Positions 15,960 through 64,000 of a stretch of DNA of 64,000 nucleotides are shown here, in pieces. The stretch's first letter is position 1; every line of letters starts with the position of its first letter. Origin of the DNA: Pelagomonas calceolata (Eukaryota). The stretch covers positions 1,550,001-1,614,000 of the forward strand of contig CAKKNE010000004.1 of assembly GCA_918797485.1 (NCBI GenBank). Reading direction: 5' to 3'. The notes beneath the pieces were generated by a model. That model had not been told where the DNA came from and did not search any database. It saw only the letters and a list, made by a program, of their open reading frames with translations. A program made the translations under genes and the position numbers.

Positions 15960-16982
15960 CGAAACGATTTGGCCTGGCAATTTTAGTGGCCTGCGAACGT
16001 CGCGCCAGTGCCAGTGGAAGTGCCAGTGGCGTTTCGTGCCGCGTCAGGCGACCTATCTGCAGCCCAGCGGGCACCCGGCCGCGCCTACGCATCCTCCCTA
16101 CACCACAGGTACCCGAGGGCCCCTGGGGGACCAAATTACCAGCAGAATGGACTTCGCGGCGGAAAGTGACCCCTCTCCCCCCAGCCCGGTCGCGGGGCGT
16201 ACAAAGGGCTCTTTGGGACCCCGCAGCAAAATCGCCGCCGGCCAAGTGGCTGGTCCGACTCGAATCTCGAATATAATTCCGCAACAACATCTTGTCGTTG
16301 GGCCCTCGGGATTTCCTCGTTCGCCGCGTATACGACGGCCTGATGAATGATTCTAAAGGTCGCGGTTCGTCGAGGAACGGGGCTTTGTTCCTGGAAAATC
16401 TTGCGTTGGAAGCGAATTGGCCCGGGCCTCTGAAAAAACCGGCCGCGAAAAAGTTCGCCAATGAATACGTCGCATCGCGCCGAGTTTCCGAGCTCGCCGG
16501 CGGTTTCAAGAGAATGTCGACCCTTCATAATATGAGCAATTGGGTCGAGAAGGAACGTTTCGGCTTGCCGGAATATTTACTCAGAACGTGCCCCGCGTCT
16601 CTCCGGGAAGGGCGGAGGCTGAAAACGAAATTCCGATTGGGTTGCCACGATCTTCGAAGCTCGAGTTGTCGAATGCAGCTCGTCCGTAACGCGCAATGCC
16701 CTTGTTGCGAATCTCGCGAGTCGGAAACTATCCAACACACGTTGTTTGAATGCACAGCCTTTGAGGAAGAACGCGAGGTATTTCTTTCGAGATTATACTC
16801 GGTTCGCCCCCTCGCACGGCAATTGAATGATGAGTACCGTTGTCGGCTGGTCATGGGGCACAAGTTACCCCGGGAGATTGAAAAAACGTTGTATCGGTAT
16901 TTTATTGCTATTTCGAAGCTCCGGTTGGGTATCCTGACCGAGCAGGGAGAAGGCTCTTAGGAGCTTGTTCCTTTTTTTAGGT
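15960..16982 (+). mobile_element. 5'-truncated, degenerate non-LTR retrotransposon (LINE) 3' end
   Basis: ORF 16292-16960 carries KFRLGCHDLR…CPCCESRESETIQHTLFECTAF, the CCHC zinc knuckle that follows RT in LINE ORF2. Its 3' UTR (GAGCAGGGAGAAGGCTCTTAG…TTTTTAGGT) recurs at 63541 followed by (TTTA)n. The 5' boundary is approximate. Confidence 0.8.
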
Positions 16983-22630: not shown

Positions 22631-22992
22631 GCAGGGCCATCAAGGTACCCCGGGGCCGGTACTCCCGAGTCTCACAGTCGCAGGTGGGGGCCAAGCAAAG
22701 GGCCTTAGGCGCGGGCGTGGTACGATGAAGTCTGGACATCAATAATTATGTCCAAACAAGAGCCTGAGAAGCGGCTCCGAGTCCAGAGGGTGACTCGGAA
22801 GTTAGGGGGGCGGCATCTCCGAGTCCGCGTCGGTAGTGCATTTTAGCTTGGCTTTTAGTATTATTTTGGCATCATTCCAGCCTAATAGCCATCATGCGCG
22901 CCAAGCGTATACCGTGTACATCGGTACCTACGGTACGATTCTACTTCTAGTAGCATGCGTACTAGAATGTAGAGTTGTACCTGGCCATGTAA

Positions 22993-28840
<5,848 letters not shown>

Positions 28841-29935
28841 TACTGAAAGCGCGAACTCTATACTTTGGTTAAGCACCAGCAAAGGGGTCGTTGAACAAAG
28901 CACCAGGTACCTCGCCGCTGCACTCACGCTAGACTTTGATGGCGAGTTCTGACGTACACTAATCTTGGACAATTGCAACCACCACTCTGTTGACCTTGAA
29001 AATACTGAAGGCGAAAGGGGAACTGGAGAAGACGAAGAATTGCACCCAGCACTACAACGTGCTTTGCATGCTGATTAGCGTTTATGGACGCAGTGCGAAC
29101 TCCTGTCGCGGTCACGGTGGCCACAGTCTGCCAGTGAGTGTCACGGTGACTGGCACGGTACAGAACTACTCGGATACGGGGCCTTTTGGGGGCGTCAGAT
29201 CGCAACAAAAGTGGTAAAAAAATCGTTTTAAGGTGCAATGGAAATACACGTCTAGTAGGATCCGAGTCCCAAGGTTCAACTGAGACGTATCCAAGCACAA
29301 CCCGTACTTGTATTACCCGCTTAGCTTACTTCCCATCCTAGGGTACTCCGATATCCCCTTAGTAGGGGGAAGTCGCCTCTCACTCCTAACTATTATCATC
29401 CTGAGTCACTTTTATTGACGGACGCAATTCCCCGTCACAAACCCCATCAAACATGGGAGAAACTATTTCGTTAGACGACTACACTACGCTGCCGGGGAAG
29501 TCCGGAGCTACACACTCTATTTCCCTATGCATCGCATAAGGACAAGCCAGACCGCTACGCGCGGCGGGCGACCTACCCGGCCCAGGTAAACAAGGGCGGG
29601 CCGCAGCATAAGAACGCACCAGTGCCAGTGATTCAAGTTGGACTTGAACTTTGAACGTACTACCAGGATCGGCCCTCGTTCGACACCGCCTTGTGCTTCA
29701 TGTTCTACTAGTAGTACTTCAAGTTAGTAAATATTAGTTTATATAGTTTGAAATTAGACTGCCAGCGAAACCGAGCCAACCCGGATGTTCATTCACATTG
29801 GGGACGCCCCGCCGGCGGAATCGCACTCGGGGGGGGTCGACGCTGGCCCGAAGACTTGCGCCAAAAAACTTACACCATCAGATTTTTTTAACCCTCACCG
29901 CTTGCCATTCAAGCATAAAATTCGCTGGTTGTATA

Positions 29936-46043: not shown

Positions 46044-46935
46044 ATGACAATGAATAACACTCGTGAGAATCTCGTTTATCTCGCAAAACTTGCAGAGCAA
46101 GCTGAGCGTTTCGACGAAATGGTTCCGGCCCGCGTTGAGACTCGACCAAATTTAGAAGCTCGCGGAATTCGCCGATCAACGGGCCCGCGCAATTCTTCAA
46201 AATTCGTGGCGAATTTGTTCTAGGCGCGCCTCGGGGTGTTTACTAGAATTTTTTTAGGTCGATCATATGAAATCTGTCGCGAATTACTCAGAGGAGCTGT
46301 CTGTCGAGGAGCGGAATCTTCTTTCTGTTGCATACAAGAATGTCATCGGGTCACGCCGTGCATCGTGGCGCGTAATTTCCTCTATCGAGCAAAAGTCCGA
46401 CTCGGAAAAAACGGCACTGATCACTAATTACAAGAAGAAGATAGAGACTGAACTAGAGACCATTTGTGAGGACATCCTTGGAATTATAGAGAAAACGCTA
46501 ATCCCGAATTCTGCCGGGGATGAAGGTAAAGTCTTCTACTACAAGATGAAAGGCGACTATCACCGGTACCTGGCGGAGTTCCAGAGCGCAGACAAGCGTA
46601 AGGAGTCCTCCTCCAGCGCGCTGGAGTCATACCAGCAAGCATCGCAGATTGCCAATAAGGACCTTCCGCCCACGCACCCTATCCGCCTTGGTCTCGCACT
46701 CAATTTCTCTGTCTTCTATTACGAGATTCTCAATTCGCCAGACCGTGCTTGCCACATTGCTAAACAGGCCTTTGACGACGCCATTGCCGAGCTGGATACT
46801 CTTTCTGAAGAATCATACAAAGACTCTACCCTCATAATGCAGCTCCTTCGCGACAATCTTACCCTCTGGACCTCCGACAACGCTGACAACAATCACGACA
46901 ACAATGCCGATGGTACCGCAGTCCAGGACCTTTAA
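46044..46935 (+). CDS. 14-3-3 protein (2 exons, intron 46122-46257)
   Basis: [82 protein letters not shown]. Confidence 0.97.
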
Positions 46936-47241
46936 CTCAGCTTGAAGCGCCAAAAATCAAACCATAAACTATCCCCCAATTTGAGACCAGGGCATGTGAT
47001 TGACCTGCGGTTGGCCCGGCAGATGCGTGCCTCCTCTCTCTAAAGGTTGGAAGCAGGCTCGCGGGCTAATAATGGCGCACTATCCTATACCCCCTGCACC
47101 ATATAAAGCAGGCGCAAAGCCACTGCATGTGCCAGTATTTGGGACTGACAGTCGAGTTCCCCTTCTTTTTCCCTAATAAGGCTGTCGAATCACCTATTGT
47201 GAATAAATAGGTAGTACTAGTTAGTAGGGGGGAAGCTTATG

Positions 47242-47900
47242 CTAAGTACTAGCTCCTGAGAGTGAGAGTCTGAATCCTGCAACCCGCCGGGGGTCCTGCC
47301 GCGGCGCGCAGCATGCCCCAGCGAGAGCATACCCTGCGCTACACGCCGACCCAAACGTGGCGCGAATCTCCAGTATGCCTTGCTTGCTTTTGGATTTTTT
47401 CCCTTTGTTCAGGACTTGTGAGATCACGAATGGACCATTAGCTGGTATGTTCATACCAAGGTCGGTGAGCATTGCCCCCGAGTCCGACGCTGCGCCAGAG
47501 CCCACAGTATGTTTGAATTAGTCATAACAAAGTTTCGCCCCACCGAAGTACTGCGCAGTCGAATCACGCATTCCAGGCCGGCATCGGGCCTGAATCCCTT
47601 CCCTCCCCCGGCGAGCCTCCCCGCGCGGCGGATGGTGTGTCTGGGTGGCGTTCTTAGGGTCTTCCCTTGGAGCGATTCTCCTGCATGCACCATTTCGTCG
47701 TCCAGGACGGCTTGACTGCTCTCTCCCACTGAACATACTGAACATTGGGAATATTGAATCGATTGCTAGAACTTGAACTCGAAGGCTCAGCCTGAGGTTC
47801 GAGGTTAAGGAACGTCATGGTGTGGTTATCGACGTTCCAGCCATTCACTTGGGTCAAGATTACGGCCAGAAGACCCGACAAGTCACTGGAGTTGATAGCT
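47242..47900 (-). pseudogene. Frameshifted coding relic of unknown identity, possibly TE-derived
   Basis: Three overlapping minus-strand ORF pieces (47654-47881, 47451-47729, 47242-47505) read like one decayed ORF. Footprint words AACTTGAA (47769) and AGCCTGAG (47789) lie inside it. Confidence 0.3.
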
Positions 47901-49340
47901 GACCGGCGCTTTCAAATAGTTTTGGGTGGCTCGCTCAGATTTATCGAAACCAATACCAATAGCCTGAGCACGGCAGTAATCTTGAAATGTTAGACGTGTT
48001 GATGGCTTGGTAAGCAGATCCGCCGGATTTTGCTGCCCGGGCCATCGATGTGGTCACAATGAGTCGTGGTTGAGCTTGATATTCGCGCCGCGGGCAGAGC
48101 ACTCCAATTTTCAAATATCGCCCGGCGGCCGCGGCCCCCGGGCCGGGCCGGGGCTGTGGCCTACTAGTAGACACCATGCAGAGCTAGGACCCAAGTAACG
48201 CCGCGTAATTCTTCCTTCTACTAGTCCGACTCACCCTAGTTTGCGGTGGGGTTTGGGGGCTCTCACGGCCAGCGCGGAGGCGCATTTGTGCCGCCAGCGC
48301 GTGTGGAGGTCCTAGGAACTCGTCCGCGCCTGGAGTAAAGAGCGCGCGTCGAAAACTAGCCGCCTCGGCGGTCTGCGAGTGCCCAAAAGCTGGTGCTCTG
48401 CGAAGGCCCTAAATCGGCGCACGACTGCGAACAGATCTCCAAATTGCTGGTAGAGAAGCGCCTGACCAACACAAACAGCGCTGCACCTCCAGAAGTCCAC
48501 CAGCTATCCGTCGCCACATGTCAACCCGCGGCCGGTCGGGAGAGCATATTCGGTGAATGTCGATCGCGGGCCGCTTGGGCACCTACCGATAAAATTCGAC
48601 CGGTATGACGTACGTATGCATTCCAGCGGACGTTGGAATGACGCGCCGACGCGCCGCGCCAGTGGAAGGGACTTAAGGCCTGCGACGCCGACCGCGGGAA
48701 GTCGAACTCGTCCTAGAGCGGCCTTTAGGACGCTAGGCGCACTATCATAGGCTATATTCGAATACCAGCGCGGGTGGGGGATTGGGGGCACTCTCTGGTG
48801 CAAGGAAAACCCGCACCACCCCCCCAGCGCGGTGATGCTGGGGGCGCGTCGGCGGCGGCGGCCGGGCGCCCTAACGCCAGTACGAGGGTGGGGGCCGCGG
48901 CCCTGATGCGGAGGGCGGCCGTTAGGAGGGTGTGGACGCCCTTCTCGGGGTCGCCGTCGAGGTTGATGTCGCCGACGGCCGTGACTATGTCCTTGACCGA
49001 GTCGTCGGCCATGTTGTCGTTCGGGGGCGTCGCCGGCGGCGGCGCGGCTCTCGTGGGCCTCTGTGGGCGCCCCCGGGTGGCCCTGGGCGGGCGGGGGGGC
49101 GCGCGCGGGCGCGTGTGTCGATCGGCGAGGGTTTCGCAGATTTTCGCGGGGGCGCCGGTTTCGTGCGTGAAACGGGGCGCGCCGCGTCCCTACGTGGTTC
49201 TGAGGCGGCCTGAGCCTCAGCAGACAGCGATGGATCGCGTAGAGTTGCAACCACGGTGATGCTGGTATGCGAGAGTTAGTAGGGGGATCGAGGACTAGAG
49301 CGTGCGGGTATCAGCGCAGCGCGCTGGCCCTCCAAGACTA

Positions 49341-51062
49341 GGGGGGGTGACACCAAAATTGGAGCTCGGGTTCTCGACGACGAGCAGTCCCGGGGATTTC
49401 TCCGGAGAGAGGCGTCCAGCCGGCTCGTCAACCAAGCTTCGCGTTTGGGGAGGGCGGATTCGGGACCCTAAATATTGCCGCTTTTGGCCGTCGTCGTGCC
49501 ATTAAGCGCCTCTACCGAACCGCAGGCTGCTCCTACGCAAAAACTTCATCGATGGCGCACCATCAGTGGGTGTTGGTGCCGGCGTAGGAGCAGCCCCGAT
49601 GAAGTTTCGGCACGCCGCGGCTGCGCATGCGGCGGAGATAGTTTCATCGGTCGAGCTTCAGGGTTGGGCCGTTTTTCAAAACGCATGCGCAGCCCGAAAA
49701 AAGTTGTCTAGGAGTTGCCCGATGAGGTTTCGAGCCGCGGCCGCGATTCCTTTTCAGCTATTCCAGCGCTGATAGTCCGCCAGCGGCCGCGCCGCCCGCG
49801 CGGCGCGTCCGAGTCCCGCGAACGACGTAAACGGGGCCAAAGCGGCCACGAGGAGGACGAACGCGTCAAAATAGGTGGTCAAGGCCCACGCATGGTACAC
49901 GAACGAAGTCCTGCGACGCTCCATCTGCCCAGTCGGCCCCCAAATCGCTTCAAAATGGCATTTCGACCTCGTTTTGGCATGTTTTTGCCTCACCACGACC
50001 CGAAATCCCCCTAAGCGCCGGTAAATTTTGTCTGAATGTACCCCATAGAACCCACAGAGAACTACCCCGGGACTGCTGAAGCAAGGCTCATCGAGGTCTT
50101 GCGCTAGAACCCAGCCTGGGGGAGGGGGGCACCCAGGGGCACCCGGTTTTGGCCGGTTGCTTCCGAAGCACCTGCAATCCGGAGAGGCCGTCTGGGGACT
50201 CCTCTGGGGGCACAAAAGCGGCCCTCAACTTTTCGTGGGGATTGGTACGACTGATGCAGCTACTGATGCTAGCGCCCCATTTTAAGACGCCGCGTGTGCG
50301 CCATGCGGGCCTAGCTGCGGAGGCTGCGGCGGTGCGCCGGCCCAAGCACCCCATCGACTACACGAGGGGGCGCCCACTTGGCATTTGATGCGGGCTGCGC
50401 ATAGAACGCGGACGCTGAACTCGGCGTTTTTCCTAAAACGGCAAATCGTTATACGCGGGCGATGAGGCCAAAATCGTCACAATAAGGTCGTATGGGACCA
50501 TACGAGGCACACCGCGGCCTTAGTTTGCTCAGATTGGACCGGTGGTGCGCGTGAAGGCCCGGCCGAGACGTCGAGAGCGTTGTGTACAGCGGGCTGAATG
50601 GCGGCGCTGCAGGGTTGTAGACCTCCGTAGCGGCCACAGACCCAACCGAGGGGTTATGTGCGAGGTCCGAAGCGGCCGAACTACTGCCGGGGGCGATTTT
50701 GACCTTGCATCCCGCGCCGCGGCGGTCACCGAGACACAGTAATCAATCTGTTTTTCTTATGATAAGGCCGCTGCCCTACGCTCGAATGACCCCTCCGATC
50801 ACATGCCTCGTGCACGGATTTAGGCTATCTAGCGTCGGGAGCTAGGTCGGCTGGTCTAGGGGGGTGCCCCCCCCCTGAGCCTCTGGTGCGTAAAGACCCC
50901 ACCCCTCTTTTACGTCGTCAAAGGGGTACCACCCCTCTCTCCTACGTCGTTCGGGGTGCTACCCCTTTTTCCTCCCGAAAAAAGAGAGAAAACGGGTTTT
51001 ATCGAAAAGGGTGCGGGGTCTTTACCCGCCAGCCTGAGCCTGGGGTTAGTGTCACCCCCCAT
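49341..51062. mobile_element. Mutator-like non-autonomous element A (GGGGGGTGACAC termini, 9-bp flanking duplication CCAAGACTA)
   Basis: Terminal inverted GGGGGGTGACAC/GTGTCACCCCCC; CCAAGACTA at 49332-49340 and 51063-51071; the empty site is visible in H copy 1 at ~17181-17203. Confidence 0.75.
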
Positions 51063-51084
51063 CCAAGACTAAGCAGCTAGACTA

Positions 51085-51879
51085 GGGGGGGTGACACCAA
51101 CCCCAAACCGGTTCTAGCGCAAGACCTCGATGAGCCTTGCTTCAGCAGTCCCGGGGTACATGTAGTTCTCTGTGGGTTCTATGGGGTACATTCAGACAAA
51201 ATTTACCGGCGCTTAGGGGGATTTCGGGTCGTGGTGGGGCAAAAACATGCCAAAACGAGGTCGAAATGCCATTTTGAAGCGATTTGGGGGCCGATTGGGC
51301 AGATGGAGCGTCGCAGGACTTCGTTCGTGTACTATGCGTGGGCCTCGACCACTTGTATTGAAGCGTTCGTCCTCCTCGTGGCCGCTTTGGCCCCGTTTAC
51401 GTCGTTCGCGGCACGCACCGCGCGGCCGCTGGCGGACTATCAGCGCTGGAATAGCTGAAAAGGAGCGGGCAGCGCGGGTCGGAACCTCATCGGGTAGCTC
51501 CTAAACAACTTCTTTCGGGCTGCGCATGCGTTTTGAAAAACGGCCCAACCCTGAAGCTTGACCGATGAAAATGGGCAGCCCTTTTTTGATGCGGCGGCGT
51601 GCCGAAACTTCATCGGGGCTGCTCCTAAGCCGGCACCAACACCCACTGATGGTGCGCCATCGATGAAGTTTTTGCGTAGGAGCAGCCTGCGGTTCGGTAG
51701 AGGCGCTTAATGGCACAACGACGGCCAAAAGCGGCAATATTTAGGGTCCCGAATCCGCCCTCCCCAAACGCGAAGCTTGGTTGACGAGCCGGCTGGACGC
51801 CTCTCTCCGGACAAATCCCCGGGACTGCTGAAAGAGGCGTCGCCGGAAACCCGAGCTCCATTTTGGTGTCACCCCCCAT
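51085..51879. mobile_element. Mutator-like element B, internally deleted inverted relative of A (9-bp duplication GCTAGACTA)
   Basis: Same termini as A; 51111-51879 is an inverted copy of 49341-50110; GCTAGACTA at 51076-51084 and 51880-51888. Confidence 0.75.
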
Positions 51880-52561
51880 GCTAGACTAAGCACTTAGACT
51901 AAGCTCCCCTACCGCGCGGGTTTTAGCTCTCCCGTAGTATCTCAGCTTCAACTCCCATTGACGTCAACCTCAAGTTGAAGTAAGGGTAGTCATAGGTAGC
52001 CACAGACCCCTCTCAGACCTCCACAAACTTACTCCTACTTCTGCTGTGATCTTCCCGACTCGGACGCTTTCCGACGTCTAAGTCACGCGCAAACTAGCCT
52101 GAGGTCAGGTCGGAGGAAGTAAGATTTGGACGCATCCTCCATGAGCCCTAATTAAGATAAAATAAATTTCCCTGCGAAGCTTAATACTGCGTGGAGTTCG
52201 ACATTTAGAGAGGGGTCAAGCGCAATAGTCGACGTTGATTTTATCATGATATTTGGCGCAATGCGCGTAAAACCACGCGCCGGCCGAATGGCGGGAAACT
52301 TCTGCTGAGGCGCAGGTTCCGTACTAGTATGCTAAAATAACTTGAATGGGCTGACCAAAGAATGCAATGCGTGAACAAGACGACCATCGGCACACCACCT
52401 CAACCTGGCTTCTAAAATGGGCTGAGCGGCACACCACCCCAACCTGGCGTGCTACGAGAAAGGCCGACAATTCAAGGAACTAACTGTAGATGTACCATTA
52501 ATTTTATAGATTGGTACATACATAATATCAGGCTATATAATATATCGTCTCTCAATCGCCA

Positions 52562-53134
52562 ATGGACGTCGCAGCAGCGCGCGAGAAGATGATAGCCCGC
52601 CGCTTCGGTGGGGCGCAGCAATCTCGTACGGGCGGAAAGGGGTCATTCCGCCGGAAAAAGAAAACTGTGCACAAAACAGCTACCTCTGACGACAAAAAAT
52701 TGGGAAGCACATTGAAGAAACTAGGAGTAACCAACATCCCCGCCATCGAGGAGGTCAACCTGTTTACGTCAGATGGTAAGGTAATCCATTTTTCGAATCC
52801 CAAAGGTGATGATTAAACACATATATTTTCACTTACTGGATGAATACAGTCCAAGCATCAATCGCCGCAAATACCTATGTCATCAGTGGTCCGAATGAAG
52901 CGAAGAGTGAGTACATTTTATCTCTGCGTTGTTGATAATAAATGCGCAGAGCTAAGTGATTTACTGCCGGGTATAATGAACCAATTGGGACCTGATAATA
53001 TAGATCATCTCAAACAGCTTGCTGACAATCTCTCGAACTCAAACAAAAGTACCAGTATGGGTGAAGAGCATGATGATGGTGACGAGGACGTCCCCGATCT
53101 TGTTGAGAATTTCGAGGATGTTAGCAAATCTTGA
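52562..53134 (+). CDS. BTF3: Nascent polypeptide-associated complex beta subunit / BTF3 (3 exons)
   Basis: [39 protein letters not shown]…[44 protein letters not shown]. Confidence 0.95.
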
Positions 53135-53650
53135 TTATTTGTCGTGGAAAGCCTCAGCGACGGAAAGGCCACCTAGCTGCCAGTCTATTATGTGGCTCTT
53201 ATATGGCTGGTCACCATCATGTATTGCCGTAGAGTATTGCCGTCATCGACGCCGTCATCTACCCGCAATTCTCGTAGTGTAAATGGGGCCTAGTATGGGG
53301 CCTTTTGCATTTTCGAGTTTTACTAGTACTACTAGTAATTCAAGTTAGATCCGAGTCTTGGTTTCTGGCTGGCCCGGGTTCTGAGGGTTGGCGTTGAGCC
53401 AACGCGAGTCCTATACGGTATACCCCAGAAACCCCGTTGATGAAATGGATCTAACACTAATATCGGGACCAACGGCACCGACCAGCCTGAGTGCCCTGAC
53501 CGAGGGGCCCGGCCCGGTCCCGGGGGGCGGGAGGTCCTGAGCGAGTCTAATCGATCAGAAAATTACCGGCTTCTTCGGATAAGCCTCCTAGTTGCATGCT
53601 GTTGCGATTGCGAGCAAGGTGTGCACTCTAGGTGTGCGCTTATGCGCCGT

Positions 53651-54032
53651 CTAGGTTGCCATTAACCGCTTAATAACCGGTAATTTACCTATTAGTACCC
53701 CTCGGAGGGGATCCGGGGTTAATAATCCGCTCAATAACCCGACGGGTTTTCGACTAAACCCGTTTAGTGAGATTAGTGAAGACCTCTCCGGGCGAGCGGA
53801 TGGGCGCAAGCAGCCCGTTGAGCTTTTGGATACGTACAGGTACGCCAAGGCAAGTGCCAGGTCATGTGGCCCGGCACGGCCCAGGCCCGCGCGCCAGTGG
53901 GCCGTGAGGCCCCCTCCCCTACCCCTCTATAAGATCCTGAGGTAAATAACCCGTACTAACCGGCAATTACCCGGGTTATTAACCCCGGGCGGCGCCAGGG
54001 GGTAATAACCCCTCAGGTAAATGGCAGCCTAG
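53651..54032. mobile_element. hAT-like MITE (382 bp, 17-bp TIR, 8-bp TSD TGCGCCGT)
   Basis: CTAGGTTGCCATTAACC … GGTAAATGGCAGCCTAG (2 mismatches); TGCGCCGT at 53643-53650 and 54033-54040; several subterminal TAA(T)AACCC/G motifs at both ends. Confidence 0.85.
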
Positions 54033-54220
54033 TGCGCCGTGCGGCCCGTGCTCGTGCTGCTATTGAGCTGCGTGGCCACCAAGGCCTTGTTTAGGCGCTC
54101 TGCCTGCGTAAACTGCACCCTAGGGCATTTAACTTACCCGGGGCGACAACGTAGCGGGGAGTCCTCGTCTCTCTCTCCCTAGACGCATGTTCAGCGACCG
54201 GAGCAAAGGGCCCTAGCCAG

Positions 54221-57200
54221 CTACAAGTCAGCTTCGATGATTTTCTCTTGGACGTCAGTCACCATGGAAGCTGGAGCTTCAACCATGGACATGTCATTGA
54301 CCCCAGAGCTCATGCTTGCCTGATCGACCGGTGTTGGCTGCGGTCGGGCAGCTTCTGCCTCAATAGTGATTCTGTCCACATCGTCGGCCAGTGACGCCTG
54401 CTCATCTCTTGATTTATTCCGGTAGACAACCATGGCCAAGATGAACAGAACAGCAGCTCCGGCAACAACACCACCAATGATGCCGGCGCTAGCCGCGTCG
54501 ACCCCCCCTCCCGAATTGCTGCTTGAACTCGACCCGGAATCGCTGCTTGAACTCGACCCGGTCGATCCCCCCCCATCCGTGGGCCCCCCATCCGTGGGCC
54601 CCCCATCCGTGGGAGCAGTGGGGCTAATTGGCGAGGTAGGGGTTGAAGTTGAGGGTCTTGGTGTGGGCATGTCCTTGGTGGGCATAGGCGTGGGAAAGGC
54701 TCCAGTGGGCATTGGCGTGGGTCTTGGCGTGGGTTGCTTTGTCGGCCTTGGCGTAGGAAAGCCACCCGTAGGTTTTGGCGACGACGTCGGCACCCACGTG
54801 TCTGTGGTAGGCATTTGGGACGGTTCGTGGGTATCTACTGTACCCACAGAAATGCCAAATAAAACGAAAGCCTGGTGGGCGCCCGGTTCGCCAACCATCA
54901 GATCGTCAATGCCGTCATTATTGACATCAAATGTGCCAAGAGCGACAGCCGCACCGGCCTGCGCTCCAAGATTAGTACCAGTAAGAGCAAAACCATCGCT
55001 GCCATCCAACATGCGAACATCAATACTGGCATGCGCCGGAACCAGGCTAGCAGAACCAAAAACAACATAGGCGGTGCCGGGCTCCGAAGCCGTACGGTCA
55101 AGGCCGTTGGACGCACCAATAAGAATGTCGTCAAGACCATCGTTATTTATGTCCCCGGCACCTGCGACAGCTGAACCAAGCGCACCTCGTCGTAGGGATG
55201 AAACGATAGGCATGGCCTTCTTTGTATTCTCCTTTTTCTTCCAGTTATCAGGTTTGCCAAGCATGATGTATACCATGCCCGAGCCATGGTCAACGCCAGG
55301 AGCTCCGACGAGGAAGTCAGCATAGGAGTCGCCATTGACGTCACCAGCTGCGGAAACAGCAACACCAATATAACGCTCCTCGCTGTCTTTATCTCCCCCC
55401 TCAGATGAGGTGAACGTCATGAAGCCTGGACTGTTATCGGAGTCTGGATCGAGATCGTCGCACTTATATTCAGCGGGGGCATCATCATTGCGCATATACT
55501 CGTTACCAAAAACAACACAGACAGTAGCAGCAGCAGGTGCTCCAACCGCCACATCATCATAGCCATCGTCGTTGATGTCGCCGATGCCGGCAACCGATGA
55601 TCCGAGGTCAGATTGGTCATGGGTGAGGCGAAATCCCTCGGTCGGACCAAAAGTCGTAGCATCAACAATTGAAGCTGATAAGGCCGTCGAAGCCATCCCA
55701 TAATATACATAGGCGCAACTAGACTGCGGGGCGCCGATGACTACATCGGCATAGCCGTCATTGTTGAAATCAAGAGTCGAGAGAGATGACCCAAAACCGT
55801 CGCCGTTCGACCCGCCTTGCAGTTGGATGTAGTCAACACCAAGCATCATGTCGCTCTCTAGAGAAATGATATTAGTTTCCGGAAACCCATCACCTCCAAA
55901 TACTACAAAAACTGTGCCCGTGCTGTCATTATCCGCCGGACAGGCCAACGCCATGTCGTCATGGCCATCAAGATTGAAGTCTCCCGCTGATGCAACGACT
56001 TGTATACTACAGGGGGCTTCTATGGCTGCACCGACGAAGTTGCCAGAAGTCTGTGTGGTGATAGAGTTGAGATCGCCCGCAAAAATATCATCGTTGGCAG
56101 CGCCGTAAATCAGGTAAGCTTTGCCATCGGCGGCCGCGACGAAGTCATCAATACCATCAAAGTCAACGTCACCAATGAATGCTATAGAGGGGAGCGTTTC
56201 TTCTCCGCGCAAGATAGAACCCGCTGACATCCCTTGTATGGAGCTCAGGGCAACTTTAGAGGGAAAGGGGAGCTTTTCGTTGCCCAGAGAGTAGGTCGGA
56301 CGCGAAGGAGCGGGCGTGGGCATTGCAGATGGACCAGTGGGCATTGTTGTGGGTGCCTTGGAATTAAAATGTTGGCCAAATATGACGTAGGCATTGCCTC
56401 CCTTGTTAGAGGCAGAACCCTTCTGGAATACCGATGAAACTATGATATCATCTATACCGTCATTGTTGAAATCGGCGGCCGCGGCAACATCGAAGCCAGC
56501 ACCGTCGCCAGAGTGTTCGCCATACATGGTAAAGCCATCGAAACCGTTAAGATCAGAAAGATCAAAGGTTCCCTTTTTCTTGGACCCTCCAAGCACACAA
56601 TAGACGGTACCAGCCATTTCGCGCGCTTGGGGAGATGAAGTAAAGGCCCCGATGAGCACATCGTCGAGGCCGTCACCGTCTACATCACCTGCGCTGGAGA
56701 CGGAGTAGCCAGCCATGTCCTTAGCAACATCGCCACGAAAGGAGATGTCAGCCCGGACAGTTGGGCCGAAGTGCTTGCGGCCCAGCACTATGTAAGCAGC
56801 ACCCCGACGATGTTCAAAGCCTGCCGCGCCAACAATGATGTCTCCGTAGCCGTCACCATTGAAGTCGCCAGCCTTTTTAACATCACCACCACAAAGATCG
56901 CCCTTTTTGGCACCAAGTATGCCAAACCCGTCGGAGCCATCCATTTCGTCTAGAAATAAAGTGCCGTGGTATTGAATACCCCCAAATATCACAAACGCCG
57001 CACCGCCATCTCCGTACTGGGGAGCGCCCACTGCGATATCGTCATGACCATCACCATTCACGTCATCGAGTGCCGCCATCTCGAGACCCAGCAGGGCTTT
57101 CTTACCGGCACCATCTTTATTCTTCAGTGCAAGAATTACACCCCGTGGGTTCATCGACCCGCCCTTACCAGCAAGATTTTGGAGTGGTAGGATCGACCGG

Positions 57201-58363
57201 TCGAATTCGTTGGTTCCGTAGACTAAAACAGCTTCGCCCACGTCGTCCACGTGGCCATTTTTGGAGTCGGTCTCCACGCCAATGAGGAAGTCATCAAAAC
57301 CATCGTCGTTGAGGTCAAAGCCACCCGAAATAGATTGACCGACGCCTCGAAAATTTGCATCGCCTTCTATGCGAAACCCACGCTCGATCGGAAATCCTGT
57401 GTGCCCGGAGCTAGTGAGATCCCAGGCGCCGTGGCCCGTCAAAGTTGTTCGATCTCCGCCAAAGAAAACGTAGACCCGCCCTTGCGAAACCAAGGAAGAA
57501 CCCACACCATCTCCCGAGGCCCCAATTAAGATATCATCGAAACCATCTCCGTTCACATCACCGGCCGTCGTGACTTGCGAGCCAAATGCACTGTCTTCCT
57601 GATCGGTATTATCCTCTCGGAGGATCATGAATGCATTTTCTCCCAATGCGTTGATAGCGGTCTCAAAGGTTCCAACATTTGATTTCTGATCAGCCCACGG
57701 CGGATATTTTGACTGTAGCCGGCGACGACGAGCGGAGGAGTCATATTCACTTGAACCAAAGAGTACGTAGACATGTCGCACCCCCGGAGCACCAATGATG
57801 ATATCGTCCACACCATCACCATCAACGTCGCCGGCCGGTGCCACAGATGCCCCCAGAAAGCCTAAGTCCGTAAACCCCTGGAAGGACGCGGCGTTCACGT
57901 AGTACCCATCCCGACGACCAGAGTTGCTCAAACCTAAGTCACTGTCCGGCCCAAAATTCATATTCCCGAGATTGAAATCAACGCCAAAACCGCCGTCCGC
58001 CGAGGAAGCGATCTTGAGCCGCTCTAGCCTCATGCATCGCTCGTGTGCCTCGATCAAGTTGCTGCATTCATCTTCGTCCTTGTTATTCGCATTCAAGCAC
58101 TCCTCTTTCTGCTTCCTTGTCTTGGGGCATCGGTCTTCCTCCGCGACGGTTCTGCTCGCCTCGCCATACTCGTATGAGTACGACAGCAGATCCTCGAATT
58201 CAAAAGTCGCCACTAACCCTTCATCACGTTGCCCCCCAAGCATGTTCAGGCGGTCGCTCGCCGGCGTCGCGCCGCGAAGAGCTTCGTAGTCCACGAATGG
58301 CGCGGCGCGTGTCATCAAGGCGCCAGAGCACGCCCATGCGAAGGCGAGCTGAACAGACCGCAT
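54221..58363 (-). CDS. Intronless FG-GAP (integrin-alpha-like beta-propeller) repeat type I membrane protein, 1380 aa
   Basis: Signal peptide; many G.SV..AGD(V/F)NGDG.DD(I/L)IIGA…G.(A/V)YV(I/V)FG repeats; Pro/Thr-rich stalk; TM helix GIIGGVVAGAAVLFILAMVVY; short acidic tail. Confidence 0.9.
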   Translation of the reverse strand: MRSVQLAFAWACSGALMTRAAPFVDYEALRGATPASDRLNMLGGQRDEGLVATFEFEDLLSYSYEYGEASRTVAEEDRCPKTRKQKEECLNANNKDEDECSNLIEAHERCMRLERLKIASSADGGFGVDFNLGNMNFGPDSDLGLSNSGRRDGYYVNAASFQGFTDLGFLGASVAPAGDVDGDGVDDIIIGAPGVRHVYVLFGSSEYDSSARRRRLQSKYPPWADQKSNVGTFETAINALGENAFMILREDNTDQEDSAFGSQVTTAGDVNGDGFDDILIGASGDGVGSSLVSQGRVYVFFGGDRTTLTGHGAWDLTSSGHTGFPIERGFRIEGDANFRGVGQSISGGFDLNDDGFDDFLIGVETDSKNGHVDDVGEAVLVYGTNEFDRSILPLQNLAGKGGSMNPRGVILALKNKDGAGKKALLGLEMAALDDVNGDGHDDIAVGAPQYGDGGAAFVIFGGIQYHGTLFLDEMDGSDGFGILGAKKGDLCGGDVKKAGDFNGDGYGDIIVGAAGFEHRRGAAYIVLGRKHFGPTVRADISFRGDVAKDMAGYSVSSAGDVDGDGLDDVLIGAFTSSPQAREMAGTVYCVLGGSKKKGTFDLSDLNGFDGFTMYGEHSGDGAGFDVAAAADFNNDGIDDIIVSSVFQKGSASNKGGNAYVIFGQHFNSKAPTTMPTGPSAMPTPAPSRPTYSLGNEKLPFPSKVALSSIQGMSAGSILRGEETLPSIAFIGDVDFDGIDDFVAAADGKAYLIYGAANDDIFAGDLNSITTQTSGNFVGAAIEAPCSIQVVASAGDFNLDGHDDMALACPADNDSTGTVFVVFGGDGFPETNIISLESDMMLGVDYIQLQGGSNGDGFGSSLSTLDFNNDGYADVVIGAPQSSCAYVYYGMASTALSASIVDATTFGPTEGFRLTHDQSDLGSSVAGIGDINDDGYDDVAVGAPAAATVCVVFGNEYMRNDDAPAEYKCDDLDPDSDNSPGFMTFTSSEGGDKDSEERYIGVAVSAAGDVNGDSYADFLVGAPGVDHGSGMVYIMLGKPDNWKKKENTKKAMPIVSSLRRGALGSAVAGAGDINNDGLDDILIGASNGLDRTASEPGTAYVVFGSASLVPAHASIDVRMLDGSDGFALTGTNLGAQAGAAVALGTFDVNNDGIDDLMVGEPGAHQAFVLFGISVGTVDTHEPSQMPTTDTWVPTSSPKPTGGFPTPRPTKQPTPRPTPMPTGAFPTPMPTKDMPTPRPSTSTPTSPISPTAPTDGGPTDGGPTDGGGSTGSSSSSDSGSSSSSNSGGGVDAASAGIIGGVVAGAAVLFILAMVVYRNKSRDEQASLADDVDRITIEAEAARPQPTPVDQASMSSGVNDMSMVEAPASMVTDVQEKIIEADL

Positions 58364-58499
58364 CGTCGAAAATTTCGACTGCCAAAAATTCTAGGATACA
58401 ATTTTTGATTGAACTTCAGCATAGGCTGACCAGCGAGATATACGAGTTACTGGGGCAACTAGGCGTTAATCCCACCAGTGCCCAAGATGGGTCACGGAA

Positions 58500-59110
58500 A
58501 TCATGATAGGGCCACCGTGAGCGCCCGGGCCTCAGGCTCTATACCAACTTACTGCGGTCACGGTTACTGCGGCGCGGGTCACGGTGTCTAGCTGTACGTG
58601 CCCGCTTAATGACCCTCACAATTCTGAGCCACACGAGATACATCCTCCAGTAGAAGAGGCCGCTTATGTTCCGAGTCAACGGTTGGACGTCACGGTTTCA
58701 AGTTGCGTCCAGGGGGAGCCTGAGTAGAGAGAGAGGAACCCTTTAGCCTGAGCCCATCCTACTAGTACCCTAGATATGTATCTCTCACTCTGTAAATTGA
58801 GTCCATACATTGCCAGTGACTCGGAGTGCCAGTGTCTATCGACGGCGACTCGGACCGTGACCGTCACGGTTACGCTAGTACTCACTGGCACTCAGGCTGG
58901 CAGGCTCAGGCCCGGGCTATGTCACGGTAAACCAGCCTGAGCTTATAATACAACACTCTCGTAGTGGGTTAGCGCCAGTTTTCTGATTGAGCAGCTAGGA
59001 CCCTGCTACTTTACATAACGCTGCGACATACTCTTGCTACGTAGGTACCACGGTACCGTAGGTACCGTAGGTACAATACCGTAGGTACCGTGTACGGTAC
59101 CTAGGTATGT
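58500..59110. repeat. Mosaic tract of XY-C-rc(XY)-G-XY octamers followed by TA-centred (TACCGTA/TAGGTA) iterations
   Basis: 22 rule-obeying octamers counted in 58500-58941; GGTACCGTAGGTACCGTAGGTAC array at ~59041-59107. Confidence 0.85.
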
Positions 59111-59226
59111 CTAGCGTGCGTTGGCCGCTTACTCTCACTACACCGCACAAATTGAAAGCAAGCTGAATTTTAAATCTCTCGAGAACATTAGACGAAGTCG
59201 ATGATCTGCTTATCGTGATATTCGCA

Positions 59227-61623
59227 ATGGTTATGGCGAGACCGAATATTCGTTTGGCAAGGCTACGTGCGAGACGGAAACAAGCTGTGTGGAGTCCCGC
59301 ACTTACATCAGCTGTTCCCGCAACTCATTCTGCAACATTTTCAAAATCCAACAAAATTGCAGCTTACCTTGCCTCGAAAATCACATCTACTCTTACTGTG
59401 AGATCAATTGTATATTTTTATTTAGTGGCAACTGCATATACGCAGGCCATTTTCACTGCCCTTGTGTCTATACCCAACTACAGATCGAGTGGAATCATCA
59501 CTTATGCCCATGAAAATGTGACTAGTGATGAGCAAAGGTTAGTATCTTGGATACGTCACATCAACCTCAAAGGGGCTCTCAGGCTATTATCACACGCCAA
59601 GCTGAAGGAACGTCAGTGGCACTGCGGTCAGATTGTGGTTAATTTTGCGGAAATTTCATCAGTGATCACAAATTCGCTAACCAATTCGTGGTCCGCGTGC
59701 GATTATGCTACATTTGGTGGCAGGGTGCATGTGGCTCCAGCTCGCTTGCTGATGTTATCGGGTGTTTATTCTGACAGACTCTCAACCATTCATAGAACAA
59801 GTCAATACGAAATGGTTGGCAGGACAACGCAGGATATGGCCCGAGTTCCAAAATTTGCCGCCTTGACAGAAGTCCTTTCAACTGGTAGCCCACGTCCGAT
59901 AGAATTTTACGAACAAATCATAGAACACGCAGGGCAGTTACTGGGCCAAATGAAACCCACGTTGGCTCCCGATTTGCATGATAATAATGATAAGCTGATT
60001 TTTGCTATTCAAAGGCAAATTTTCTTCGCCACTTATTACAGGCTTGCCAATTTGGGAAGAATAATGCCTCTACAAATGGCTAAAAGAAACACACTTCGAA
60101 TATCAGTTTTTGCAAGGGACATGCAAGAGATCCAATATGGCCCTGCAGGCAAAAAGATTATATATTTTGTGCCAGATGTTGCGCAGTCAGACGTAGCAAA
60201 AACTGATCCCACATCGACCAAAGATCGCTTTCACAGAGCTCATCGTTGCGCTTTCAACAACAAAAGAGGAGCATTTCCATCACAACAATGCCCAATTGTC
60301 TTGTCTGATGAACACAAGCGGAAACAAGTTGCCCCTTTGAATCAGTTGCTTAGTGTCATGGGGGACCTTGGTGCGCTGTGCATAGTAGCTGCGCGTTCAC
60401 AGTATACATGCAAACAGCTGAAAATTTTCACCACAGCATGCGGTGTATATGCAACCTCATCTGAATCCGTGAGACTTGATGCCCAAAACAGCCGTGACCA
60501 TACTTGGGCCTACAACTTAGTGAAAGATGTGCAGGATATTCAATATCCTAATTTCAAACTTTCTGCACAATTTATCTGCACATCTACTAGCATTAGACGC
60601 CTCCAGAAAGATGCTTCTGTTCCTGCCATTTATGATCACTCACTAGCACGACGTGCATCCATGCAAATGTACACAACCACTCGAGAAGATATTAGACACT
60701 ATAACCCCCATTTAGCCTTATTTGGGCATCAAAGAGACGCCGGTGACCAATTGCCTATGGGGGGGGGAACCCAAAACGTTCACCAAGGCTCACATCTGCC
60801 AGTGTACAAGGATAAGGAAAGTAACTCATCCATCACAAAGCCAATTCTTCTGATTGAAGATATTTCTCTTCGTTGGAACGTCCATGCCAACATGGCCAGG
60901 AGCATATTGCGTGAACTCAGAATGGCAGAACTCTCGATTAGACCCATTGATCACATTGCCGTGAGCTTATTGAGCACATCTAGTAAGCTTGCAATGACAC
61001 TACATGTAAGATCAAGGAAAAGTGTATTTCAACGCTATGATTACATTGAGGCTGCAGAAGGGAAACTGTGTGCATTGCGCGTTTGCCAGTCTCAAATAAC
61101 CGCACTCAAAGTTCATCCGCATATTTATAGCTGGAGCGCCAAGGATAAGGAAAGAATTGGACTAATTTCGCAAGGAGCACATAACCTTAACGCTCTTGAT
61201 ACAATCAGATTGTTTTTCAGGGAGTACCTTGCGCGCAAGCACAAACCAACACGGCAGCAGCTGTTGGGTCAGACTATACATGAACCATCTAGCACAGAAT
61301 TGCATGACTTAGCAACCAGGTCAGTACCCATCAGCTCAAGTTATACAGCTCGCTATTATTATCAAAATGAAGTATGTAAAAGACTTAGCCCCACATGCAG
61401 GATTCAGGGAGCACTCGGTTTGATCTTACAGCCTCAATCTGTTTGCACCTCACACGACCGCAAAGTAATTGTCTCCACAAAGAAAAAATTGAGCTCAGCG
61501 CTTTCACAATATATGGTAGACACATTTGCCAGCCTGTTACTTCATCGGCTATTCCCCGAGAACATCAAGATTGTCCACGACTTTACGGTCGAGTGTGGAA
61601 CTCATAGGCCATGCGATTGGTGA
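59227..61623 (+). CDS. Hypothetical protein, ~800 aa
   Basis: Uninterrupted 2.4-kb ORF in relatively AT-rich sequence; no motif recognised. Confidence 0.6.
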   Translation: MVMARPNIRLARLRARRKQAVWSPALTSAVPATHSATFSKSNKIAAYLASKITSTLTVRSIVYFYLVATAYTQAIFTALVSIPNYRSSGIITYAHENVTSDEQRLVSWIRHINLKGALRLLSHAKLKERQWHCGQIVVNFAEISSVITNSLTNSWSACDYATFGGRVHVAPARLLMLSGVYSDRLSTIHRTSQYEMVGRTTQDMARVPKFAALTEVLSTGSPRPIEFYEQIIEHAGQLLGQMKPTLAPDLHDNNDKLIFAIQRQIFFATYYRLANLGRIMPLQMAKRNTLRISVFARDMQEIQYGPAGKKIIYFVPDVAQSDVAKTDPTSTKDRFHRAHRCAFNNKRGAFPSQQCPIVLSDEHKRKQVAPLNQLLSVMGDLGALCIVAARSQYTCKQLKIFTTACGVYATSSESVRLDAQNSRDHTWAYNLVKDVQDIQYPNFKLSAQFICTSTSIRRLQKDASVPAIYDHSLARRASMQMYTTTREDIRHYNPHLALFGHQRDAGDQLPMGGGTQNVHQGSHLPVYKDKESNSSITKPILLIEDISLRWNVHANMARSILRELRMAELSIRPIDHIAVSLLSTSSKLAMTLHVRSRKSVFQRYDYIEAAEGKLCALRVCQSQITALKVHPHIYSWSAKDKERIGLISQGAHNLNALDTIRLFFREYLARKHKPTRQQLLGQTIHEPSSTELHDLATRSVPISSSYTARYYYQNEVCKRLSPTCRIQGALGLILQPQSVCTSHDRKVIVSTKKKLSSALSQYMVDTFASLLLHRLFPENIKIVHDFTVECGTHRPCDW

Positions 61624-61765
61624 AAATTACAAGAATTGCAAACCGGGAAGGGAATTTGTTAGCGTTAGGTTTTTGCCATAGTGCGGAAGACGACGCTCGA
61701 CAGAGGTGCGACAGCGCGGCACTCCCACTGCGAGCGCTCCAATAAAAGGACCCAGTTTGAGGCCA

Positions 61766-63024
61766 TGCAGGGCTACCCGGGGCAGATGCCGGGCCAAATG
61801 CCCGGCTAGGGCCAGATGCAGATGCCCGGCCAGCTGAACCAGGCCGCGAACCAACACCGGCCGCCGACGGACGCGGCGACACGCGGTCGTCGATCTCGGC
61901 GCTCGACGTGCTCTCGCGGCCAGCGCCGCCCGCGGGCGCCGGCATGCCCGGCTACGGCATGGCCGGGCAGATGCCCGGGATGATGCCCCGGGGCAGATGC
62001 CCGGCACCGGCCATGCCGGGCGCGATGCCGGGTGCGATGCCCGGCGCCATGCCCGGCGCCATGCCCGGCGCGCCGCCGCCGCGGCTGAGCCCCCCGAGCC
62101 GGCCGGCCCGCCGCCGTTGCAGCCGCTCAAAGCCAAAGCCCGAGATGCCGGGCGCGCTCAACGCGGCGCCCCCAGCGCCTTCGGCGCCCGCTGTGCCCGG
62201 CCTGCTCCAGCCGACGCCCTATGCGCCGCCGGTGCTCGCGCCCGTGCCTCAGCCAACGGGCGCCCTCGACCTCTTCGGGCTGCCCGTCGCCGCGCCGCCG
62301 CCCGCCCAGGCGCCGGCGCCGCCGCCGCAGGAAGAGAGCTGGGGCCTCGACGGCCTCGACCTGAGCGCGGGGCCCGCGGCGCCGGCGCCCTCCGGCCGTC
62401 TGGGCGCAGCTCCCGGAGGCCATGCAGCGCGAGATCCTGATGCAGCGCGGCGGCGATCCGCACGCCGACTCCGCGACGGCGGCCGTGCCGCCGCCGCGCG
62501 GCGCGGACGCCTGCCGCTCCCAGACGCACGCCGAGGCGCCGGCGCACAGCATGCACGGCGTCGTGCAGATCGAGTGCCTCGCGCGGTGTTCTTTACGCAC
62601 GCTGAATAAGGTCTGGAAGCCATCGGTCGTCATCATCAAAGGACATAGGGAGCTCCTCGTGTTCCGCAATTCGTCGGACTGGGCGCAGTACCGCACCGCA
62701 AGCGTCCATCGGGGCGGCGACATCGTCCAAGCCATGAAGGCCGTGACGCCCTTAATCAAGCTGCACATCATGCTCAGCGCCGTGCATGTGACGGATGAGG
62801 TGAAGGCCAAGGAATACAAGACCTTCGGGCCGACCTTCGGGCCACTGCACCACTTCACGCTGTCGGAGACGAGCGCGGAAGGGAAAGAAAAGGTCGTCGC
62901 CAAGTTCGCGTCGCGCGGCGCGCGCGAGTGCCTCGACCTGCGCGGCGCGATCAACGCCGCCGTCCGCAGCGGCGGCGCGTCCCGTTCCGGTGGTGGCGAC
63001 GCCGTCGGCCGCTACAACTCGTGA
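61766..63024 (+). pseudogene. High-GC gene with MPGQ/MPGA low-complexity N-terminus and PH-like C-terminal domain; in-frame TAG and frameshifts
   Basis: ATG CAG GGC TAC CCG GGG CAG ATG CCG GGC CAA ATG CCC GGC TAG GGC CAG (apparent CAG>TAG at 61807). The repeat reading switches frames at ~61990 and ~62090. The last segment (LARCSLRTLNKVWKPSVVII…VVAKFASRGARECLDLRGAI) looks PH-like. Confidence 0.55.
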
Positions 63025-63528
63025 GTAGTTAGAGTGAGTAGTATAGGGTTTCGTGTACTTCATGCCCCCATACTGACAAATGACCCGGATGCAAAGACGC
63101 ATACAAAATCCGAATTTTGAAATCCGATATATAAAAACTAACATATCCCGTCGACGGGTTATGTTATACGGACGCAGGCCAAGCGGGGAACAGATGATCC
63201 GTTTTGCAGAAGATTGGTGGCGCATGTTGCCGCGTATCTAGACGTGCTTCCTCGGTTCCGGTCCGCGTATTCAAACTATGTTTTAAATTATAGTTCGAGC
63301 ACCCTTCAAGCTCGGCGGGTTCGTGAAACTTGAACGATCATGATAAATGTTGTATGGTTACATTTTTACTAGCGCCGCCATGTTTAGTCATTTTTGTAAA
63401 TTAAGAGATCTGATATTAGTTGCAATTGAAAAGAATTAATCCAGGAGCACAAAAGACATGTTTTTCGGTATCGTAAAAACTTGAAGTTGAAATTAGAGAT
63501 AACTGGGACTCGGAAAAAAGAAATTCAT

Positions 63529-63610
63529 CTTCTTGACTCGGAGCAGGGAGAAGGCTCTTAGTAGGTTTTTTCTATTTTTAGGTCTACCTTAATTTATTTA
63601 TTTATTTATT
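63529..63610 (+). mobile_element. Extreme 3' end of the same LINE family as 15960-16982, with (TTTA)n tail
   Basis: GAGCAGGGAGAAGGCTCTTAG is identical to 16940-16960, then a T-rich UTR and TTTA repeats. Confidence 0.7.
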
Positions 63611-63726
63611 CAACTTGAAAGTCTATTTATTTTAGTAACCGGTGATGAATCCCTAAACATGGAACAGCGATGACACCGGTGACAAGCGATAGTATATATA
63701 AGACAAGTCACACGGCGAACGACACA

Positions 63727-64000
63727 CTAGATCCCGAGCACTGCGTAGTCGTGGATGAAGCAGTAGGCGAAGAAGAGCAGGTACCCCAGTATGTAGAAGA
63801 TGCCCGACAGCCGCGTCTGCACGTAGCGCTGAGTCACGGCGCTCACAACCGTGAACAGGAACGCGCCTGCGATGATGCCCGAACCTAAATCGGACGTCTG
63901 CACGAGGATGGGCTTCCCGTTTATAGCGGTCGAGATCGCCCACGGTAAACCCAGCGCAAATAACACATCGAAGATGTTCGATCCAAACACGTTCGCCACG
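63727..64000 (-). CDS. K+-dependent Na+/Ca2+ exchanger (NCKX/SLC24-like), C-terminal fragment running off the window
   Basis: Alpha-2 repeat signature ANVFGSNIFDVLFALGLPW followed by two TM helices. Confidence 0.85.
   Translation of the reverse strand, partial: VANVFGSNIFDVLFALGLPWAISTAINGKPILVQTSDLGSGIIAGAFLFTVVSAVTQRYVQTRLSGIFYILGYLLFFAYCFIHDYAVLGI

Follow-up and report, generated by a model that had tools for sequence, protein, structure and literature searches.

Six-base insertions following a single rule in non-coding DNA of a marine picoeukaryote: candidate excision scars of a cut-and-paste transposon

Throughout the 64-kb window (the whole stretch of DNA that was analysed), octamers of the form XY-C-rc(XY)-G-XY, in which rc(XY) is the reverse complement of the dinucleotide XY, were found to arise from XY by insertion of six bases. 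This insertion is the commonest class of indel between haplotypes, lies in non-coding DNA, is piled up in hot spots and often falls inside earlier octamers. We lean towards reading the octamers, which appear at arbitrary dinucleotides, as excision scars of a candidate cut-and-paste transposon with a 2-bp target duplication, C...G ends and hairpins formed on the flanks.

Results

The rule octamers form a family of 16 words that is closed under reverse complementation. They were counted 110 times in the window against about 17 expected from Markov simulations (16.5 at order 1, 17.6 at order 3). DNA outside stop-to-stop open reading frames (ORFs) of at least 150 amino acids makes up 34% of the window (21,765 bases) and holds 84 of the 110 copies, where 6.4 were expected (z = 31); within ORFs the count is close to chance and consists mostly of GC-only words. 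The most frequent complex octamers, counted on both strands, were AACTTGAA (21), GACTCGGA (16), AGCCTGAG (15), CACTGGCA (12) and ACCGTGAC (11), all of rule form.

The enrichment is specific to the rule in each of its parts. Replacing the C/G spacer by any of the other 15 letter pairs gave 14-49 copies, and replacing the middle by XY itself or by its plain complement gave 47 and 46, respectively. In a count matrix of XY-C-NN-G-XY, only NN = rc(XY) was enriched, standing out in almost every row; all 16 dinucleotides are used as XY, and the inner bases co-vary with the target. The opposite polarity, XY-G-rc(XY)-C-XY, was raised only where it overlaps tandem rule hexamers, with about 14 isolated copies against about 12 expected. 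For XY-rc(XY)-XY, XY-CG-XY, XY-GC-XY and XY-CATG-XY the enrichment was weak or absent, and three-base versions of the rule gave 3 matches in all, 2 of them GC-only. The copies stand in unrelated contexts and are therefore not members of a dispersed repeat family, and no flanking base preference or target consensus was found around the rule sites.

Rule octamers are clustered in nearly every intergenic stretch of the window, at a density of about 1 per 260 bp of non-coding DNA. Examples are 11 copies at 241-1123, upstream of a WD40 gene, 4 copies within 65 bp at 22761-22825, and 8 copies at 29111-29725, between convergent genes. Such concentration between genes would suit selected regulatory words, for instance binding sites in promoters, with the indels described below as gains and losses of sites. 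We nevertheless consider this reading very unlikely: the 16 words are linked by a copying rule and share no core, they are found not only in promoters but also where 3' ends converge, their origin is an exact gain of six bases in which the dinucleotide is duplicated, and they are nested inside one another and inside repeats.

For comparison of haplotypes, three metagenome contigs (L001-L003) were retrieved with a 28-base pattern taken from 58340-58367. They align to 46510-64000 at 96.7-99.4% identity and belong to the same species; as a measure of divergence, L003 and the window are separated by 86 substitutions over 10,214 aligned columns. Walked alignments of the window to the three contigs yielded 54 indel events, distributed over lengths of 1 bp (10), 2 bp (5), 3 bp (9), 4 bp (3), 5 bp (2), 6 bp (13) and longer (12), some 1-, 2- and 7-bp rows in the hot spot being alignment fragments of more complex octamer differences. 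Six bases is thus the commonest length (13 of 54). Under a strict test, in which the longer allele had to become the shorter one when a rule octamer was replaced by its dinucleotide, 10 of these 13 passed as an exact octamer against a dinucleotide, so that rule-fitting insertions, which the original prediction had set against other 6-bp indels, are the commoner kind between the window and the wild contigs. By chance such a pass would be rare, being achieved by only 62 of the 12,476 distinct 6-bp deletions possible in 46510-64000.

The octamer is present in the window in eight of these events (52339, 53484, 58716, 58863, 58883, 58921, 63506 and 63535) and in a contig in two (52056 in L001, 63159 in L003). 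On the plus strand, AACTTGAA at 52339-52346 and AGCCTGAG at 53484-53491 are reduced to AA and AG, respectively, in L001, and GACTCGGA at 63507-63514 to GA in L003; conversely, the window has an empty GA at 63158-63159 (plus strand) where L003 carries GACTCGGA. The three failing events were TACATGTA at 51156, GTGGCG at 62993, in a GC-rich coding triplet repeat, and AAATTA at 63490. One of the two 12-bp events also fits the rule: at 63330, two adjacent insertions, AACTTGAA and ATCATGAT, lie two bases apart (63327-63344, plus strand) and are both absent from L003, which is 12 bp shorter. The target duplication is always kept: in each rule event one allele or paralogue has XY...XY and its counterpart a single XY.

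Indels of other lengths in the same alignments were mostly ordinary slippage. Tandem duplication or replication slippage was ruled out as the origin of the rule octamers, in which XY alone is directly repeated and the remainder is C, rc(XY) and G. An assembly or sequencing artefact, to which we give practically no credence, is already refuted: contigs from an independent run of this organism agree with the window throughout 8 listed pieces (0 differences), and most octamers are common, base for base, to the three metagenome contigs.

Further length differences were recorded in the same alignments. L001 carries a polymorphic 9-bp GGC-CAG-CTG-GGC insertion inside a rule octamer at window position 51031, and the TACATGTA scar at 51157, likewise polymorphic, is found in the window only. 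A segment of 82 bp at 47626-47707, flanked by a 4-base repeat (CGGC), is missing both in L001 and in a metagenome contig. At 62004, inside a GC-rich coding repeat, all three contigs have an extra block of 68-89 bp, a 15-bp tandem unit at 54569-54598 occurs in 3, 2 or 1 copies, and a 12-bp tandem duplication at 62820-62831 is polymorphic in length. L001 also holds 208 bp (its positions 10289-10496, window position 53588) beyond the window sequence, with a junction that shows neither duplication nor inverted ends.

Three comparisons between repeat copies within the window had been put forward in the original prediction. All are present in the sequence, one of them cleanly and two less so. The clean case is the octamer AGCCTGAG at 52096-52103 (plus strand), which lies within aaactAGCCTGAGgtcagg in H copy 2. 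H copy 1, read as the reverse complement of 16983-17021, is aaactAGgtcagg and has an empty AG on the minus strand at 17000-16999, so that the copies differ by exactly +6 bp with otherwise matching flanks. A gapped self-alignment of 51896-52119 to 17194-16983 (85% identity, 225 columns) likewise placed an exact 6-bp gap at this octamer. At the same site, a contig from a same-organism run, probably from another H copy, reads AGCTAG, two letters being missing; this could be an XY-rc(XY)-XY form lacking C and G or a plain CTAG duplication. Further H copies were looked for in viral_contigs, with 0 matches. H copy 2 is itself interrupted by insertions at 48824-49318 (495 bp) and 49341-51901 (2,561 bp), and other genomic H copies lack both, as judged from contigs joining across.

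In the second comparison, element A (49342-50134) is 90% identical to its inverted copy B (51089-51877) and holds TCCGAGTC at 49808-49815 (plus strand), within gcgTCCGAGTCccgcgaacg, where B (at about 51411) has GCGTGCCGC, within gcgTGccgcgaacg. The +6 is borne out, the gap being 6 bp with one adjacent mismatch, but A has TC and B has TG as the dinucleotide, so that one substitution is needed as well, a point absent from the original prediction. In the third, at the LINE end, GACTCGGA stands at 63535-63542 (plus strand) and the surrounding window reads cttcttGACTCGGAgcagggag, with cctgaccGAgcagggag in the paralogous piece at 16934. The octamer is there, but the GACCGA of the other copy (16934-16939) is homologous only from the shared GA-GCAGGGAG onward, so the paralogue simply has a single GA, at 16938-16939, as does L003.

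Two further differences were seen between repeat copies. H copy 2 carries GACTCGGA at 52057-52064 (plus strand), +6 relative to copy 1 in a divergent flank, and L001 has a further ACCGTGAC insertion overlapping this octamer. Copy B carries TACATGTA at 51157-51164 (plus strand), which is off the rule in its inner AT and has the classical TA-CA-TG-TA footprint form; copy A and the copy B of L001 both have TA, so it is derived in the lineage of the window. Over about 1.6 kb of paralogue alignment within the window, all four six-base indels are of the form XY-CNNG-XY and three of the four follow the full rule, and the remaining gaps (1, 2, 8, 9 and 10 bp) include none of the form XY-CNNG-XY.

The claim that the octamers were inserted at dinucleotides already present, once the repeat copies had diverged, is supported by the population indels, which settle it, by the outgroup at 63535 and by nesting; the three paralogue comparisons, of which one is clean, would have been thin evidence by themselves. 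Its second part, a duplicated dinucleotide plus four templated bases, stands for the duplication; templating applies only to the two central bases, the reverse complement of the dinucleotide, and C and G are constant. At 63535 the paralogue and L003 are both short, and the octamer is therefore derived there.

Nesting was measured by peeling, in which every rule octamer was replaced by its dinucleotide and the replacement then repeated. This uncovered 8 and then 2 further octamers (10 nested), against 0-2 in nine control families. The hot spot at 58500-58941, between two divergent genes, is enclosed by a stretch (58441-59000) that peeling shortened from 560 to 410 bp through removal of 25 rule insertions, 19 visible and 6 nested. 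Within it, all four haplotypes differ at 58847-58900, and octamers are polymorphic at 58717, 58863, 58883 and 58921; another octamer nest lies at 11930-11983 of L003, in the 4.2 kb beyond the end of the window.

The haplotypes form a series at 58880-58900. L003 reads actCACTGGCAgg, with an intact CACTGGCA; L002 and L001 read actCA-CT[CAGGCT]GG-CAgg, in which six bases split the octamer of L003 at its inner CT and complete the rule octamer CTCAGGCT; and the window has an additional CACTGGCA at the preceding CA. Were the series read as deletions, each step would need an accidental perfect rule word. That the octamers are ancestral throughout, the short alleles being precise 6-bp deletions between 2-bp repeats, could be argued from the long form of the window in 8 of the 10 polymorphic rule events and from the fact that most of these events have no outgroup. 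We regard it as extremely improbable in view of this series and of the short form shared by paralogue and L003 at 63535; in addition, the long form is confined to a wild contig in two events, and the 13-fold excess of octamers would require a creating process in any case.

A candidate source element was sought in the DNA read here. No transposase domain was found in the 45 scanned of 69 window ORFs of at least 130 amino acids, nor in the extra DNA of L003, where the 2 longest of its 8 ORFs were scanned. The search likewise turned up no element that combines a 2-bp duplication with C...G ends, and none of the 54 indel events, a small sample from 3 contigs and about 17 kb, is a filled site. A search of the window for terminal inverted repeat (TIR) pairs with 2-bp flanks returned 186 candidates; nearly all of them lay within the long A/B inverted repeat, and no convincing family with C...G ends was among them.

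Other repeats were noted as well. A family with G-run inverted ends (GGGGGGGT[G/C]AC...) is represented at 8178-9300, 49341-50134 and 51085-51877; the first copy is 1,123 bp long, with an inverted repeat of 31 bp (2 mismatches allowed) and an AT on either side, and the other two, of about 790 bp, are the A/B inverted pair nested in H copy 2. These elements were rejected as the source of the scars, since their ends are G...C and the G...C scar family has no independent enrichment. A repeat of about 430 bp at 53641-54072, with roughly 70 times the single-copy depth in a same-organism run, appears MITE-like from its imperfect inverted ends (GTTGCCATT... / ...AATGGCAGCC) and a TAG on both sides. 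At 58993-59110, with about 300 times the single-copy depth, 9-base units CGTAGGTAC with GGTACC palindromes vary in number between haplotypes (indels of 8, 9, 5, 3 and 1 bp).

The window is eukaryotic: its genes encode an axonemal dynein heavy chain, the second subunit of RNA polymerase I, a 14-3-3 protein, WD40/fibronectin and FG-GAP proteins and coatomer gamma. Among named relatives, the 14-3-3 protein is closest to those from Pelagophyceae sp. CCMP2097 (78-81% identity), and positions 52000-61999 are present in 20 of the 24 listed public runs, from 11 studies and mostly marine metagenomes. According to the genome preprint, the Pelagomonas calceolata genome has 32.4 Mb and 63% GC, and each chromosome has one trough of about 259 kb with 50-52% GC, rich in dynein and transcription genes and containing three repeats common to the troughs; these gene-bearing low-GC troughs were proposed to be centromeres (10.1101/2021.10.25.465678). 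With 50.7% GC, dynein and polymerase genes and GC-rich repeats, the window fits one of these troughs, as judged from GC content, gene content, the shared GC-rich repeats and the pelagophyte-like 14-3-3 protein. The preprint contains none of the words motif, palindrom- and indel (10.1101/2021.10.25.465678).

Discussion

Both strands of the product read D-C-rc(D)-G-D, which means that each 3' end has been extended by C and the reverse complement of its own last two bases, the middle dinucleotide being common to both ends. As known from Ac/Ds footprints and V(D)J joints (PMC5873905, PMC5499845), an inverted flank copy around one unpaired base marks a flank hairpin opened off-centre. The apex base of such a hairpin must adjoin XY in the donor, and C on both ends would then imply a donor XY-[C...G]-XY; the constant C and G would thus point to an intermediate with foreign, C...G-ended DNA between two copies of XY, which makes the de novo origin put forward in the original prediction less certain. 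That the two central bases are always rc(XY) fits P nucleotides, and the constant C and G fit the ends of the putative element.

A pathway leading to this product can be formulated, of which we infer every step from the insertion of an element onward. An element with 5'-C...G-3' ends would insert with a 2-bp target duplication, giving XY-[C...G]-XY. At excision, a nick by the transposase would fall one base within the element at each 5' end, and the 3'-OH of the flank would be joined to the opposite strand, leaving on each flank a hairpin with the retained C at its apex (...XY-C-Y'X'...). Cleavage of both hairpins by a host nuclease, two bases beyond the apex, would create 3' tails that read ...XY-C-Y'X' at the left end and, on the lower strand, ...Y'X'-C-XY at the right end. 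Annealing of the last two bases of the tails and subsequent fill-in would produce exactly XY-C-Y'X'-G-XY. The inverted dinucleotide would be a P nucleotide, and C and G the terminal bases of the element. As the duplicated dinucleotide is identical on the two flanks, the final two bases of one tail would always pair with those of the other, whatever XY; annealing and fill-in would yield only the observed word, which would explain its uniformity. In a haploid cell, which offers no homologue as a repair template, each local hop of a few such copies would leave one scar.

On a rough rate argument, the lifetime of insertion alleles would fall far below the coalescence time of the haplotypes, so that finding none among four haplotypes would not be surprising, and the transposon reading is feasible. 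The TA-CA-TG-TA and GGC-CAG-CTG-GGC scars at the same loci both fit elements ending in CA(G)...(C)TG. Against the transposon reading count the outcome of the search, which found neither an element nor a transposase domain nor a filled allele in the DNA read here, the density of the scars, which is very high for footprints, and the heterogeneity of known excision footprints, whereas one form dominates here: in Candida, 128 Ds excisions left 28 different footprints (PMC5873905), and only 8 of 94 rice excisions were 'perfect'. Nor is any transposase known to us to couple flank hairpins with a nick placed one base within the element.

A serious rival is a templated insertion that involves no transposon, in which an endogenous nuclease or topoisomerase-like activity would make a cut with a 2-base stagger at arbitrary sites of open or centromere-like chromatin, and a specialised repair, by fold-back or hairpin capping and addition of C to each 3' end, would write the six bases at an empty XY. 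The extreme uniformity of the scar, its clustering in intergenic hot spots with recurrence inside earlier scars, the lack of a target consensus and the outcome of the search, in which neither the scanned ORFs nor the 54 indels held an element or filled site, would all suit such a process. So would the behaviour of trapped type II topoisomerases, whose 5' overhangs of 2-4 bases are filled in to give short duplications. The constant C is hard to supply in this way: the apex base should come from DNA adjoining XY, and an empty XY site could not provide C on both 3' ends. Moreover, known repair polymerases do not add exactly one C and then copy two bases backwards, and the other scars at the same loci, keeping 2-3 bases of CA(G)...(C)TG ends, point to real elements. 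We give templated insertion a real but clearly minor chance.

Equally tentative is the more general proposal of a deterministic six-base 'zigzag' insertion at any non-coding dinucleotide, made by an endogenous process with no resident transposon. Candidates for it would be a hit-and-run or domesticated hairpin-forming transposase, or a route of break repair peculiar to the gene-bearing low-GC, possibly centromeric, troughs of this pelagophyte, which is abundant worldwide. If true, the process would proceed at an appreciable fraction of the rate of point substitution, act as the chief source of small indels there and make intergenic DNA steadily longer.

Among the small indels that separate wild haplotypes of a widespread marine picoeukaryote, the largest class is thus a single rule-based scar, and in one intergenic hot spot about a quarter of the sequence (150 of 560 bp) is due to it. 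On the transposon reading, the scar would be a readable record of the chemistry of DNA breakage, namely a 2-base stagger, a hairpin, one retained base and a 2-base microhomology, and the responsible enzyme and the hairpin-opening and end-joining machinery of the host would be directly testable in an organism that is as yet without genetics. The polymorphic octamers are ready-made strain markers for metagenomes. They also call for caution, as k-mer or motif scans of such genomes will report 'enriched octamers' that are mutational scars and not regulatory words. No description of the octamer words or of such scars was found in open-access papers and bioRxiv.

Among known systems, polymerase theta leaves short insertions at break junctions that are copied from the flanks, sometimes as the reverse complement. 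These vary in length and source and have no constant bases, whereas the same six-base design recurs here in each event. Tc1/mariner footprints (TA-CA..TG-TA, TA-CAG/CTG-TA) resemble the rule octamers in the duplicated dinucleotide that flanks constant element-end bases, but they are restricted to TA, their inner bases are constant and they lack an inverted copy of the target, whereas the rule octamers use all dinucleotides. An origin as Tc1/mariner footprints was ruled out accordingly; only TACATGTA, with 4 copies, has the mariner form.

Flank hairpins are described for hAT, Transib, RAG and Muta1 (PMC5499845), and the P nucleotides of V(D)J coding joints are like the rule scar in that a hairpin on the flank leaves a 2-base inverted copy. 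In V(D)J recombination, such hairpins are opened some two bases away from the apex; the nicks made by RAG and Transib lie precisely at the border, so that the apex retains no base of the element. The duplication of RAG/Transib is 5 bp and their joints are diverse.

The Ac/Ds elements of the hAT superfamily, studied in plants, budding yeast and Candida albicans, come close in several respects: their footprints are palindromic P-nucleotide insertions joined on microhomology, the target duplication is kept, short copies of the flank are inverted around one unpaired base, and these features are explained by flank hairpins opened off-centre and joined on microhomology (PMC5873905). They differ in variety, with 28 kinds of footprint in 128 excisions (PMC5873905) and one dominant form here. 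Furthermore, hAT duplications are 8 bp, and the centre base of a hAT footprint complements the flank base that adjoins the element, whereas here it is a constant C; no hAT element was seen in the DNA read here.

The CMCT clade (EnSpm/CACTA, Mirage, Chapaev, Transib and Plavaka) has mostly 5'-CA..TG-3' ends and duplications of 2-5 bp, PlavakaB making 2-3 bp (PMC12730594). No member of the clade was found in the DNA read here; the predicted element would share its 5'-CA..TG-3' ends, its 2-5 bp duplications and its kinship with the hairpin-forming Transib (PMC12730594). We would class the rule scar with the hairpin-type excision footprints, as a distinct form in which one retained base and a 2-base inverted copy stand on each side and any dinucleotide can serve as the target.
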